Positions 1 through 4,231 of a stretch of DNA of 4,231 nucleotides are shown in pieces. Made by a program: the position numbers and the translations under genes. Source of the DNA: a virus (taxonomy: Duplodnaviria; Heunggongvirae; Uroviricota; Caudoviricetes); IMG/VR virus record IMGVR_UViG_2778260979_000026; one strand, given 5' to 3'. Under the pieces are notes generated by a model. That model worked only from the letters and a program-made list of their open reading frames with translations, made no database searches and had not been told where the DNA came from. Every line of letters begins with the position of its first letter. Positions within the stretch are counted from its first letter, which is position 1.

Positions 1-282
1 ACTGCGCATACGGGCCACCAGCAGAGGCGGCATTGCCTTTTCGATCGCCGGTAACAGAGCCTGCATTTTTTCAACAGCATCAGGGGTGTCTTTATCCAGC
101 CAACGGAAAATTTTCTGGGTATTACGAGCCAGGGCTTCCGGATGGCTGTCGTCGTACAGTTCCGGGAACGTCATCCCCAGTTCGAAATAAGTCCGGGCTA
201 TTTCAGCTGCAGGAACTTTCTCACCATCAGGATATGCCCAGGCATTCATCGCCATGCGGATGTGCTCATGTTTGATTTTCAT
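1..282 (-). CDS. ydaT: YdaT-like prophage regulatory protein, N-terminal part only; the gene runs off the left edge of the window
   Basis: Hand translation of the minus strand from ATG at 282..280 gives MKIKHEHIRMAMNAWAYPDGEKVPAAEIARTYFELGMTFPELYDDSHPEALARNTQKIFRWLDKDTPDAVEKMQALLPAIEKAMPPLLVARMRS, open to position 1. It is absent from the ORF track because there is no stop in the window. The N-terminus matches my recollection of Rac prophage YdaT (memory, not a search). A GAGG lies about 10 nt upstream of the ATG. The start overlaps the 3' end of the ydaS-like gene by 17 bp. The + strand ORF 33..275 is its antisense shadow. Confidence 0.7.
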   Translation of the reverse strand, partial: MKIKHEHIRMAMNAWAYPDGEKVPAAEIARTYFELGMTFPELYDDSHPEALARNTQKIFRWLDKDTPDAVEKMQALLPAIEKAMPPLLVARMRS

Positions 283-589
283 GAATCATTTGCCTCTTGA
301 TGCTTCGGGTATGATCGTTTTCGTCATTTGGTTGCTTCATCGACATATTCTGCGAATAACATGACGAGCGTCGTAAGTATGTCCAATCAACATCAGGACG
401 AAGTTCTTCACACAGGACACCACCTTTTGTTGCTCGTTCAATCGCAGGACATCTCTCAGCAGGCAACTGACGTACACCTTTGATCCATTGATTTACGCTT
501 GGAGGAGATACACCTAAAAGCCTAGCCATTGCTGATTGCCCACCGACAACAGCACAAGCTCGTTTGAATGAATAGTTATCTTTTTTCAT
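266..589 (-). CDS. ydaS: Cro-like helix-turn-helix DNA-binding protein (YdaS family)
   Basis: The ORF track protein contains MKKDNYSFKRACAVVGGQSAMARLLGVSPPSVNQWIKGVRQLPAERCPAIERATKGGVLCEELRPDVDW, which matches Rac YdaS closely from memory. I chose the ATG at 589..587, which has a GGAG about 7 nt upstream on the minus strand, over the track start at 610. It is divergent from racR across an operator region. Confidence 0.85.
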   Translation of the reverse strand: MKKDNYSFKRACAVVGGQSAMARLLGVSPPSVNQWIKGVRQLPAERCPAIERATKGGVLCEELRPDVDWTYLRRSSCYSQNMSMKQPNDENDHTRSIKRQMIHENQT

Positions 590-618
590 CGAATGAACTC
601 CAAAAAACACACAATAAT

Positions 619-687
619 ATTAGGCTTAGCCTAATGCAATTGTCAATAGGCTATGCCTAACACTTCGAGAGTAGGCATTGCCTAATG
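619..687. promoter_or_regulatory. OR-type operator cluster and divergent promoter region between ydaS and racR
   Basis: Three spaced inverted repeats of the form TAGGC-N3-GCCTA: ATTAGGCTTAGCCTAAT at 619..635, TAGGCTATGCCTA at 647..659 and TAGGCATTGCCTA at 672..684. A perfect -35 TTGACA lies on the minus strand (+ coordinates 646..641) with TAATAT 18 bp downstream, pointing at ydaS. An AGGAG at 698..702 precedes the racR ATG. Confidence 0.7.
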
Positions 688-713
688 CGATGCGCATAGG
701 AGACTATTAAGCA

Positions 714-1190
714 ATGCTTAGTGGTAAAGACTTAGGCCGAGCGATAGAGCAGGCCATTAACAAAAAAATTGCATCAGGAGCCGTCAAATCAAAGGCGGAA
801 ATCGCACGTCATTTCAAAGTCCAACCACCATCAATCCATGACTGGATTAAGAAAGGTTCGATAAGTAAAGACAAACTTCCAGAACTATGGCGTTTCTTTT
901 CTGATGTGGTTGGTCCAGAGCATTGGGGGCTTAACGAATACCCCATACCAACCCCATCCACTTCAGATACAAAAAGTGAACTTTTAGACATAAACAGCCT
1001 TTATCAAGCCGCCTCTGATGAAAAAAGAGCAATTGTGGCTTTCCTCTTATCTGGAAATGCTACGGAGCCTAGTTGGGTTGATCATGACGTTCGTGCCTAC
1101 ATTGCCGCAATGGAAATGAAGGTAGCTAACTATCTGAAAAATCAAGAATCAAAACGGAAAAGCCAGAACATCACCAAGACAGGAACTTAA
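714..1190 (+). CDS. racR: Prophage repressor RacR (CI functional analogue)
   Basis: The 158-aa product MLSGKDLGRAIEQAINKKIASGAVKSKAEIARHFKVQPPSIHDWIKKGSISKDKLPELWRFFSDVVGPEHWGLNEYPIPTPSTSDTKSELLDINSLYQAAS... is near-identical to E. coli Rac RacR as I recall it, at the same length. It is divergent from the cro-like gene and flanked on both sides by operator palindromes. Confidence 0.9.
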   Translation: MLSGKDLGRAIEQAINKKIASGAVKSKAEIARHFKVQPPSIHDWIKKGSISKDKLPELWRFFSDVVGPEHWGLNEYPIPTPSTSDTKSELLDINSLYQAASDEKRAIVAFLLSGNATEPSWVDHDVRAYIAAMEMKVANYLKNQESKRKSQNITKTGT

Positions 1191-1283: not shown

Positions 1284-1327
1284 ATTAGGCGTAGCCTATT
1301 GACAAGCAATTAGGCATTTCCTATAGT
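1284..1327 (+). promoter_or_regulatory. OL-type operators overlapping a near-consensus sigma70 promoter (pL analogue) reading rightward
   Basis: -35 TTGACA at 1299..1304, a 17-bp spacer, then -10 TATAGT at 1322..1327. Operator-like palindromes ATTAGGCGTAGCCTATT (1284..1300) and TAGGCATTTCCTA (1312..1324, one mismatch) overlap the -35 and the spacer/-10. A weaker half-site TATTAGGT lies at 1265..1271. Confidence 0.65.
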
Positions 1328-1427
1328 TTTCCCATACCAACCCATCCCGTCCCACACAATACAGGGCAATACCTAGAGTTACCCGGCAGTGGTCAGGGAT
1401 TAAGTAGCCAGCCCGAGGCGTAAGAAC

Positions 1428-1772: not shown

Positions 1773-2264
1773 CTACAGATTGCCGTTCAGTTTTCTGGCC
1801 AACTCTTCAATAGATGGAGGTGATACGTAATCCGGATTTTTATTCATAAGAAACTGATTTTCACAGTACAGGCACCTGCTTTTATGAAAAAATTCATATT
1901 CTCTAACCGGGAATGGCTGAAGTATCGATACTATCTTTTGTCCAAAACATTTTGGACAAAGATGCATGATTATGCTGCCGCCGTTCACGGTTACCTCCTT
2001 CGAGTACACAAAAGTTCCCGACTCAAGTTGGCTAAGGATATAACCTTCCGTCTGAGCCTCAAAGTTTTCAAATTCTGCAATTTTAGCTTTGAGAGAAGCA
2101 TTTATTTCTTGATAAGTGCCCACCAGCTCAACGAGAGACACGCATTCGCGCTGAATAGATGCAAGCTTTGAGTTCAGTTCACCAATAGCCGCATTTACTT
2201 CAGCTTGAGTTTTTGCCTCGTTCATTAGTTTTGCAATCTGGGCGGTTTCACGAATAGCCGTCAT
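1773..2264 (-). CDS. Hypothetical protein with a coiled-coil-like N-terminus and a C-terminal CxxC-x22-CxxC zinc ribbon; candidate moron or exclusion gene
   Basis: Minus strand ORF ending at TAG 1775..1773. Start chosen at ATG 2264..2262, giving MTAIRETAQIAKLMNEAKTQAEVNAAIGELNSKLASIQRECVSLVELVGTYQEINASLKAKIAEFENFEAQTEGYILSQLESGTFVYSKEVTVNGGSIIMHLCPKCFGQKIVSILQPFPVREYEFFHKSRCLYCENQFLMNKNPDYVSPPSIEELARKLNGNL. The track's longer version starts at a TTG at 2441 and translates the upstream repeats into Pro/Arg-rich sequence, which looks non-coding. There is no obvious Shine-Dalgarno, so the exact start is uncertain (the next in-frame ATG is at 2225). The gene is oriented against its neighbours and is more AT-rich than they are. 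Confidence 0.6.
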   Translation of the reverse strand: MTAIRETAQIAKLMNEAKTQAEVNAAIGELNSKLASIQRECVSLVELVGTYQEINASLKAKIAEFENFEAQTEGYILSQLESGTFVYSKEVTVNGGSIIMHLCPKCFGQKIVSILQPFPVREYEFFHKSRCLYCENQFLMNKNPDYVSPPSIEELARKLNGNL

Positions 2265-2302
2265 TGCTGCCGTTAATTCAGCGATCACATTCAATACTCT
2301 TA

Positions 2303-2372: not shown

Positions 2373-2810
2373 GTGGTAAAAAGCAGGCACACAACACGAA
2401 AGCACACGGCGAGGGACACCATTAAATGGTGGCTTAAGCAATCACGCGAAGCGCAATCTGCCATTATGACCGATGAAATCCCGTTAGATGATGCACTGTT
2501 ACAATTGCGGGAATTTATCGACGAAAACTCCGGTGAATTTTTTGTTCAGGTCTGGGGAAATGGAGCCAACTTCGACAACACGATTTTGCGCCGTTCATAC
2601 GAACGGCAGGGGATCCCCTGCCCGTGGCGTTACTACAACGATCGCGATGTACGCACAATCGTTGAGCTGGGGAAAGCCATAGACTTCGATGCCAGAACGG
2701 CTATTCCATTCGAAGGTGAGCGCCATAATGCACTTGATGACGCCCGTTACCAGGCAAAATACGTTTCAGTTATCTGGCAAAAACTGATCCCGAATCAGGC
2801 TGATTTTTAA
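2373..2810 (+). CDS. DEDDh-type 3'-5' exonuclease family protein (Rv2179c-like), apparently 5'-truncated
   Basis: The product carries an Exo II-like motif (WGNGANFDNTILRRSYER) and an Exo III-like Hx4D motif (HNALDDARYQAKY) but no N-terminal hydrophobic-strand/DxE Exo I motif. The first ~13 residues (MVKSRHTTRKHTA, from a GTG start) do not resemble the family. An in-frame ATG is at 2466. Neither start has a convincing Shine-Dalgarno. Confidence 0.65.
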   Translation: MVKSRHTTRKHTARDTIKWWLKQSREAQSAIMTDEIPLDDALLQLREFIDENSGEFFVQVWGNGANFDNTILRRSYERQGIPCPWRYYNDRDVRTIVELGKAIDFDARTAIPFEGERHNALDDARYQAKYVSVIWQKLIPNQADF

Positions 2811-2821
2811 TGTTCAACCCC

Positions 2822-2854
2822 GGTCGTTGCCCACCAGCTATAGTGGCGGCGACC
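2822..2854 (+). other. GC-rich stem-loop in the exonuclease-xis intergenic region
   Basis: GGTCGTTGCC(C)AC pairs with GTGGCGGCGACC with G-U wobbles and one bulge, about 12 bp, around the loop CAGCTATA. No U-tract follows on either strand, so it is not a canonical intrinsic terminator. Confidence 0.3.
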
Positions 2855-2874
2855 ATGATTAGCGAACGACGCTC

Positions 2875-3123
2875 ATGGCAAGACTTATTCTGCTCACTGA
2901 GTGGGCAAAAGAGGAATTCAGTGAACCGGTCCCAACTCCGAGTACGTTAAGTAAATACGCTAAAGCCGGAATGATATTTCCTCTCCCCAAAAAAGTTGGA
3001 AGACGCTGGCGAGTGGATCCGCAAGCTCGCTTTGTCGGAATGGTAAACAAGCCGGAGGTGATCGCCACAGATCACCCTGCTTTGAAGAGGATACTGGAAG
3101 ATGGCGCGCCCGCGAAAATATAA
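2875..3123 (+). CDS. xis: Excisionase (Xis, DNA-binding)
   Basis: An 82-aa basic protein, MARLILLTEWAKEEF...GMIFPLPKKVGRRWRVDPQARFVG, typical of excisionases. It lies immediately upstream of int and overlaps it by 23 bp. Confidence 0.8.
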   Translation: MARLILLTEWAKEEFSEPVPTPSTLSKYAKAGMIFPLPKKVGRRWRVDPQARFVGMVNKPEVIATDHPALKRILEDGAPAKI

Positions 3124-4231
3124 AACCGATGTTCCGGGATTATCTCCGTATTTTGACAAAAGAAATAACAAAGTTTACTGGCGTTACAGGCATCCCATAA
3201 CAGGCAAAAATCACGGTCTCGGCAGTATTGACCAGAAACTGGCAGAAACTATTGCAGCAGAAGCGAACAGCCGTCTTGCCCGGCAGCAAATGGAACAAAT
3301 GCTCAGTCTGCAGGAGAAAATTATTAGTGATACCGGCGGTTCATCAACCGTTACCATTTTTCTGAATAATTACAGAAAAATTCAACAGGAAAGATATGAA
3401 AACGGCGAGATCAAACTCAACACGCTGAAACAGAAAGCGGCCCCTCTCAGGGTATTTGATGAACGTTTTGGCACCAGACCGTTAGATGCCATAACCGTAA
3501 AAGATGTGGTATCAGTACTGGAAGAGTACAAGGCCAGAGGACATAACAGAATGGGACAAATTTTCAGGAAAGTACTGATCGATGTTTTCCGGGAAGCTCA
3601 GCAAACGGGCGATGTCCCGCCAGGCTTTAACCCTGCAGAATCGGCAAAAAAACCGCAGGTGCGGATATCAAGACAGCGACTGACTTTTGATGAGTGGATG
3701 ATGATTTATAACGCAGCGGAAAAGGATGGTTACTTTTTACAGCGCGGTATGCTGCTGGCACTGATGACAGGCCAGCGCCTTTCAGATATTTGCAAAATGC
3801 AATTTTCGGATATCCGGGATGGTTATCTTCATGTCGAACAGCAAAAAACAGGAACCCGGATTGCCATCCCTCTGGCTCTGCGTTGCGATAAATTAAATCT
3901 CACCCTGGATGATGTGGTGTCATCCTGCCGCGATTGCGTTCTTAGTCCGTGGCTATTGCACCACCATCACGCGAAAGGGACAGCTAAGCGCGGCGGGATG
4001 GTTAAGCCAGCAACATTAACCGTTGCATTTAAAAAAGCCCGGGATTCTGTGGATTACAACTGGCGTGCTAATGGCACCCCTCCCTCTTTCCATGAGCAGA
4101 GATCTTTATCAGAGCGATTGTTCAGAGAGCAGGGGGTTGATACCAAAATTTTGCTAGGCCATTCGAATCAAAAAATGACCGATATTTACAACGACGCACG
4201 CGGTAAGGAATGGAAAAAACTGGTCATTTGA
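3101..4231 (+). CDS. int: Tyrosine site-specific integrase (lambda Int family)
   Basis: A 376-aa product with an arm-binding-type N-terminus (MARPRKYKTDVPGLSPYF...). Catalytic signature elements are visible: R in GQRLSDI, H-x-x-R in HEQRSLSERL, and the H...Y pair in LLGHSNQKMTDIYNDARGKEW. The stop TGA is the last codon of the window. Confidence 0.9.
   Translation: MARPRKYKTDVPGLSPYFDKRNNKVYWRYRHPITGKNHGLGSIDQKLAETIAAEANSRLARQQMEQMLSLQEKIISDTGGSSTVTIFLNNYRKIQQERYENGEIKLNTLKQKAAPLRVFDERFGTRPLDAITVKDVVSVLEEYKARGHNRMGQIFRKVLIDVFREAQQTGDVPPGFNPAESAKKPQVRISRQRLTFDEWMMIYNAAEKDGYFLQRGMLLALMTGQRLSDICKMQFSDIRDGYLHVEQQKTGTRIAIPLALRCDKLNLTLDDVVSSCRDCVLSPWLLHHHHAKGTAKRGGMVKPATLTVAFKKARDSVDYNWRANGTPPSFHEQRSLSERLFREQGVDTKILLGHSNQKMTDIYNDARGKEWKKLVI

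Follow-up and report, generated by a model that had tools for sequence, protein, structure and literature searches.

A putative RacR-repressed early-left promoter (OL/pL) downstream of racR in a Rac-like lambdoid prophage

RacR, the repressor of the E. coli K-12 Rac prophage, recognizes an operator whose consensus, (T/A)TAGGC-n3-GCCTA(T/A), was derived from DNase I footprints (PMC9638921). Primer extension has located the K-12 ydaS promoter (TTGACA, 18 bp, TAATAT), which loses its activity when the -10 is substituted; it is protected at the lowest RacR concentrations in footprints, and RacR blocks ydaS transcription in vitro only if added ahead of RNA polymerase (PMC9638921, PMC11014345, PMC11879457), an order dependence that points to occlusion at this promoter. 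RacR is an octamer by size-exclusion chromatography, which in the published reading represents four dimers on the racR-ydaS repeats. All fragments in the published RacR footprinting, gel-shift and in vitro transcription work fall between -186 and +113, counted from the racR ATG, with the footprints covering -186 to +85, and therefore do not include the site described here (OL), which lies downstream of racR. In the cryptic prophage CP-933P, a PL933P reporter is repressed ~100-fold by the repressor PaaR2 and by YdaS (PMC8630535).

Lowering racR expression in K-12 raises ydaC, kilR and ralA more than 70-fold and ydaF, ydaG, ydaE and racC ~40-fold, and RacR depletion derepresses ydaG, ydaF, kilR, ydaE, racC, recET, xisR and intR. 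CRISPRi (Cascade) targeted inside racR likewise increases expression from ydaG through intR. Since a Cascade block within racR ought to halt transcripts coming from the racR promoters, by our reasoning this increase must come from a promoter located 3' of racR. A sieB-to-ydaU deletion that removes racR and keeps kilR is viable, which fits a kilR promoter inside the deleted interval, and classical genetics documented zygotic induction of the rac recombination genes. Derepression upon RacR loss could be partly indirect in K-12, via YdaS/YdaT or excision.

In the main text of the RacR papers we found no mention of a second RacR operator set, a full-text search with the OL sequence strings found no paper, and a broad search of the ChIP/SELEX literature was unproductive. 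The Cappable-seq supplements for K-12 (PMC4782308) and EDL933 (PMC10469882) listed no matching coordinate, sequence or gene name; as the EDL933 files are truncated, this result is uninformative and not negative. An OL/pL element is to be expected for a RacR-immunity phage from the textbook lambda layout and has apparently not yet been described explicitly.

The window analysed here, a 4,231-nucleotide stretch of DNA, is part of a Rac-like lambdoid prophage and comprises the immunity region and a much-shortened early-left arm (Table 1). Over positions 1-2819 the window shows 100% identity with prophage Sp6 of E. coli O157:H7 Sakai, as well as with many further O157 genomes, and its xis/int end (2413-4231) matches PPompW-type phages; because no complete E. 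coli genome covers at least 80% of the window, we regard it as a mosaic. The window RacR shares ~92% protein identity with K-12-type RacR (E. coli loci L003/L004), has no Pfam match and retrieved no relative in a PDB sequence search. The DUF1391 gene is the first gene 3' of pL and the counterpart of the K-12 ydaG/ydaF region. Further downstream, the match of the '3'-5' exonuclease' gene at 2373-2810 is limited to the C-terminal end of RecE-like profiles (~264-823 aa), which suggests that most of the early-left arm (recET, kil equivalents) has been deleted in this lineage. At the opposite end of the window, TTGATTTTCATGAATCAT at 272-289 spans the ydaT start codon and differs by one mismatch from the published YdaT box TTGATT-N6-AATCAA, a resemblance suggesting that a cII-like autoregulatory/PracR4 site is conserved here. 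A cII-activated pI analogue near xis/int was also considered and was rejected, as a YdaT-box search gave only chance-level matches there.

Table 1. Coordinates of the immunity region, the putative OL/pL site and the genes of the window.
Feature	Position	Strand	Basis or remark
ydaT'	1-282	-	Partial gene
ydaS	266-589	-	Cro-like regulator; first gene of the leftward operon; Pfam YdaS_toxin + P22_Cro; Sakai annotation
ydaS(T) promoter, pR analogue, TTGACA(646-641)-18-TAATAT(622-617)	617-646	-	Second-best promoter match
OR operator cores	621-633, 647-659, 672-684, 708-720		Motif scan; match the three to four footprinted repeats of K-12
racR	714-1190	+	Repressor gene, transcribed towards OL; racR annotation in 100%-identical O157 genomes
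OL distal RacR operator (predicted), T-TAGGC-GTA-GCCTA-T	1285-1299		0 mismatches to TAGGC-N3-GCCTA
pL -35 hexamer (predicted), TTGACA	1299-1304	+	Promoter scan
OL proximal RacR operator (predicted), T-TAGGC-ATT-TCCTA-T	1310-1324		1 mismatch
pL -10 hexamer (predicted), TATAGT; predicted start near A1334	1322-1327	+	Promoter scan
Predicted pL 5' leader	1334-1427	+	Inferred start to ATG 1428
DUF1391 (YdaF-like) gene, 76 aa	1428-1658	+	Pfam PF07151, E = 6.6e-30
Opposite-strand gene	1773-2288	-	phrog_1244 (function unknown)
RecE-like exonuclease C-terminal remnant	2373-2810	+	Profile match
xis	2875-3123	+	Annotated gene content
int	3101-4231	+	Annotated gene content

Scanning the window for TAGGC-N3-GCCTA revealed perfect cores starting at 621, 647, 672 and 1286, a core with one mismatch at 1311 and one with two mismatches at 708. 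Allowing up to two mismatches, seven matches occur against 1.1 expected, and none of 200 shuffled sequences reached seven. The fourth OR operator, TAAGCAATGCTTA, is symmetrically degenerate and overlaps the racR ATG; it is the published site of cross-talk between the controller protein C.Csp231I and RacR (PMC9638921).

The two cores beyond racR start 25 bp apart and bracket a promoter. An earlier note on this DNA had proposed a second operator set overlapping a near-consensus promoter, and both elements were borne out: two RacR-consensus sites lie over TTGACA-17-TATAGT, an 11/12 match and the best sigma-70 match in the window (three sites in all in the promoter scan). By our own estimate, the chance of an 11/12 match in the window is ~0.06. 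The distal operator fits the published RacR consensus perfectly, flanking bases included, and ends on the first T of the -35, while the proximal operator departs from the consensus by a T in place of the G in GCCTA. Relative to the predicted start, 7 nt past the -10, the distal core (1286-1298) spans approximately -48 to -36 and adjoins the -35, and the proximal core (1311-1323) spans approximately -23 to -11, filling the spacer and covering the first two nucleotides of the -10. We read a GAGG Shine-Dalgarno sequence 9 nt ahead of ATG 1428. The predicted leader had no Rfam match and folded no better than shuffled sequence (z = +0.34).

Several neighboring sequences were considered. A palindrome, ACCTATTAGGTC, is located at 1260-1271, 15 nt 5' of the distal operator, and consists of two RacR-like half-sites back to back; it is unchanged in the 31 E. 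coli-clade variants described below, where its neighbors vary, and is missing from the distant relatives. It may be an extra or degenerate pair of RacR half-sites or the site of another factor, and its membership of OL is uncertain. A third OL operator at 1267-1279 was rejected as a standard site, as it has three mismatches and a 19-bp offset and is missing in the distant relatives. An exact 13-nt direct repeat, CCCATACCAACCC, occurs inside racR (942-954) and again at the predicted pL start (1331-1343); it is inexact in K-12 and thus probably due to chance.

The two early promoters share more than their consensus elements. The earlier note had placed a 13-bp module, AGCCTATTGACAA, at 1293-1305 on the plus strand and in reverse complement at 640-652, common to both promoters in inverted orientation, and these and its other coordinates are all correct. 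An exact inverted 13-mer pair is only marginally unlikely in 4.2 kb (~0.13 expected). The match continues over an inverted repeat in which 20 of 21 nt are identical (640-660 versus 1285-1305), for which ~1.3e-4 are expected, and when 1276-1345 was aligned to the reverse complement of 600-669 the module proved to be the core of a promoter-operator cassette of ~42 bp that is shared as a whole, as it is in K-12. As at OL, one operator (647-659) adjoins the ydaS -35 and the next (621-633) lies across the spacer and into the -10; the ydaS copy has one spacer base more than the OL copy. Judged by this alignment, 1286-1327 is an inverted paralogue of the ydaS cassette and 617-659 is the orthologue of the K-12 PydaS region.

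The cassette is intact in K-12 Rac (TAGGCATAGCCTA TTGACA ATCAAT TAGGCATTACCTA TAGT), where the spacer from the racR stop to the cassette has diverged. Across 31 unique versions of the 260-nt neighborhood from the E. coli clade, the variable columns within 1286-1327 are confined to the N3 centers (1291-1292 and 1317), the linker (1305-1308) and position 1319, a base of the already imperfect half-site. Every remaining half-site base is unchanged, as are the two hexamers, and the flanks vary. In distant relatives, too, the half-sites of the distal operator do not vary. We also retrieved 12 RacR relatives from species-representative genomes by protein alone; in eight the cassette follows the racR-like gene on the same strand, and in three it is absent from the 2.5-kb flank. 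Cassettes follow racR-like genes in Mixta, Proteus, Achromobacter and metagenomic phages whose repressors are only 53-81% identical and whose flanks are unrelated. In five distant relatives among the eight (Mixta, Proteus mirabilis, two Achromobacter and a Pseudomonadota metagenome-assembled genome) with repressors 58-78% identical, the cassette is 69-81% identical to that of the window, versus 24-43% for the adjacent 42-nt flanks; 25-26 of the 30 constrained positions match. In place of TATAGT, relatives have TAATAT, TAACAT or TACTAT as the -10.

We also scanned viral contigs with a pattern made up of the distal operator plus TTGAC only, which left the second operator, the -10 and the position relative to racR unspecified. 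Taken with the loci already in hand, the scan yielded 179 same-strand cassettes in 186 loci encoding a homologue of the RacR N-terminal domain, all of them 91-3616 nt past the gene. TTGAC(A/T/C/G) is kept throughout the 43 unique cassette sequences, 41 of which have the second operator exactly 6 nt past the -35 followed by a TAnnnT -10. Copies on the opposite strand sit at a fixed distance of -55 (rarely -72) from the racR start and correspond to the ydaS promoter. The genes 3' of the cassette (RdgC, DUF2303, small ORFs) are co-oriented with it.

Loci with 0.9-3.6 kb between racR and OL carry cargo in that interval. In locus L101 this includes a 389-aa HSDR_N-domain protein (7500-8669) encoded between the racR homologue and the cassette, co-oriented with the repressor gene; it takes a rexAB-like cargo position and may be a defence gene. 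Others of the loci (L011 2501-3601 in Achromobacter, L013 and several viral contigs) encode a RacR-type N-terminal domain fused to an S24 LexA/CI-like peptidase domain. In the L011-type fusion the N-terminal DNA-binding domain is ~78% identical over 77 aa, and TAGGC-N3-GCCTA operators and the OL cassette are kept. As far as domain composition and operators indicate, these repressors have had their induction module swapped and their DNA specificity kept. Locus L005 (JARKOR010000130.1), a 5.2-kb contig labelled as a 'Candidatus Nanosynbacter' metagenome-assembled genome, encodes a RacR 92% identical to that of the window and shares its operator sequences with the K-12-type E. coli loci; the contig is probably a binning contaminant.

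Taken together, these data make it very probable that 1285-1327 is the OL/pL analogue, that is, the RacR-repressed early-left promoter of a RacR-immunity lambdoid prophage. The structural features of a lambdoid OL/pL are present: the promoter sits past the 3' end of the repressor gene, on the side away from OR, and is directed outward, and two operators with the OR consensus cover its -35, spacer and -10. That the operators belong to RacR is indicated by their consensus sequence and by the co-occurrence of the cassette with a RacR-type DNA-binding domain (179 cassettes, 186 loci). From these observations we infer RacR binding at OL, the pL start and the reach of the transcript. A strong sigma-70 promoter starting near 1334 would point from racR into the early-left genes, and in the lysogen RacR dimers on both OL operators would jointly exclude RNA polymerase, by the occlusion established at the mirror-image ydaS promoter. 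Once RacR is lost, pL and the ydaS promoter would open together, and YdaS, the Cro analogue, may later turn pL down, as it does PL933P in CP-933P.

The OL sites could alternatively be mainly auxiliary operators from which RacR oligomers reach OR by looping, so that ydaS repression and racR autoregulation become tighter, with the hexamers contributing little transcription. OL is only ~640 bp from OR, an octameric state of RacR in solution has been reported and lambda CI uses OL for looping to OR. Such a role would not explain why both hexamers and their 17-bp spacing are conserved where the flanks are random, nor the co-orientation of the downstream genes and the derepression of the K-12 early-left genes on RacR loss; as looping and promoter function can coexist, we consider it unlikely that looping is the main role. 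The loop itself can be entertained tentatively alongside a RacR-repressed pL: the RacR octamer could bridge OR and the two OL operators, rather than occupying the four racR-ydaS repeats, in a ~640-bp loop enclosing racR only. We think this less likely than not, and if true it would link racR autoregulation to the silencing of the two early promoters and revise the published four-repeat model.

Still less probable is that pL is real and is silenced in the lysogen mainly by something other than RacR, such as Rho/NusG termination, H-NS or YdaS acting on the same operators. Rho/NusG silencing of kilR was reportedly described by Cardinale in 2008. Against such a scheme, the operators match the RacR site perfectly or nearly so and are positioned for occlusion, and RacR knock-down alone derepresses the operon in K-12, even though PaaR2 and YdaS each repress PL933P ~100-fold in CP-933P (PMC8630535). 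Finally, a chance match or a decaying, functionless relic of a duplication, which the bare 13-mer (0.13 expected) might have allowed, is scarcely credible given the 21-nt extension (1.3e-4 expected) and the enrichment of the operator motif, and we judge it already refuted by the position-specific conservation and by retention across Gamma- and Betaproteobacterial phages.

For a RacR-repressed pL, the reach of the transcript depends on the signals around it. Between the racR stop and OL (1191-1285) we detected no intrinsic terminator; this gap holds only a 7-bp hairpin (1205-1226) lacking a T-run, and its folding is no better than shuffled. Transcripts of racR may therefore run into OL unless stopped by Rho or by bound RacR, and RacR bound at OL could roadblock them before the kil and recombination genes. 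Between pL and xis/int lie the convergent gene and a hairpin (~1709-1734) whose trailing T-run is poor. Rfam and folding revealed no N-like antitermination (N/nut) element, an Rfam scan of the whole window gave no match at E up to 1, and neither the racR 3' region nor the pL leader nor the convergent-gene gap folded better than shuffled sequence (z -1.7 to +0.3), so we propose no nut-like, riboswitch or terminator element. The earlier note had the repressor shutting off the whole rightward operon in the lysogen. The derepression of ydaG-intR on RacR depletion in K-12 upholds the repression; coverage of the whole operon by a single transcript is a presumption.

The same note held that the opposite-strand gene must use its own promoter, which is true by definition; the only candidate we found is a weak one (TTGTTA-17-AACAAT, 2330-2302 on the minus strand, 8/12). 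This candidate is bracketed by an exact 13-nt direct repeat, TCCCCAACAACAA, at 2303-2315 and 2336-2348 on the minus strand, 33 nt apart, and the copies may be the site of a regulator. The gene occupies the sieB position and is not SieB. Its product has a coiled-coil N-terminus and, in the C-terminal part, Cys pairs (CPKC...CLYC) that are possibly zinc-ribbon-like. It may be a lysogen-expressed accessory gene; PADLOC returned no match for it or for the DUF1391 gene.

The proposed OL/pL would tie a specific cis-element to the long-known control of recET, kilR and xis/int by the Rac repressor. In K-12 the predicted pL start falls near 1,419,619 on the minus strand. The two OL sites lie outside current RacR models, which put the octamer on the four racR-ydaS repeats, and they are relevant to engineering or deletion of Rac, to expression of KilR or RecET and to models of the RacR/YdaS/YdaT switch.

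Among described systems, the K-12 racR-ydaS region (PMC9638921, PMC11014345, PMC11879457) resembles OL in operator consensus, -35 hexamer and operator-hexamer geometry. The OL promoter differs in having a 17-bp rather than an 18-bp spacer and TATAGT rather than TAATAT as its -10, and OL has two sites, as opposed to three or four, and lacks the divergent racR promoters; PydaS was defined experimentally and OL is predicted from sequence. The closest tested precedent is PL933P/OL1-OL3 of CP-933P (PMC8630535), which is likewise part of a Rac-like immunity region that includes ydaS-ydaT. CP-933P has another immunity specificity, with GTTTAGTAA-type repeats, three reported OL operators and toxin-antitoxin cargo between the repressor gene and OL. 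Compared with lambda, the window has two OL operators instead of three (OL1-OL3), a repressor unrelated in sequence to that of lambda, operators of 13-15 bp (5-N3-5) rather than 17 bp, and neither a detected N/nut element nor a detected intrinsic terminator between racR and OL. In its layout the locus is nevertheless like lambda: OL lies across the repressor gene from OR, its promoter fires outward in the direction of the repressor gene, palindromic operators with the OR consensus cover the -35, spacer and -10 with adjacent sites ~24-25 bp apart center to center, and relatives such as L101 carry cargo between the repressor gene and OL, as lambda carries rexAB between cI and OL.
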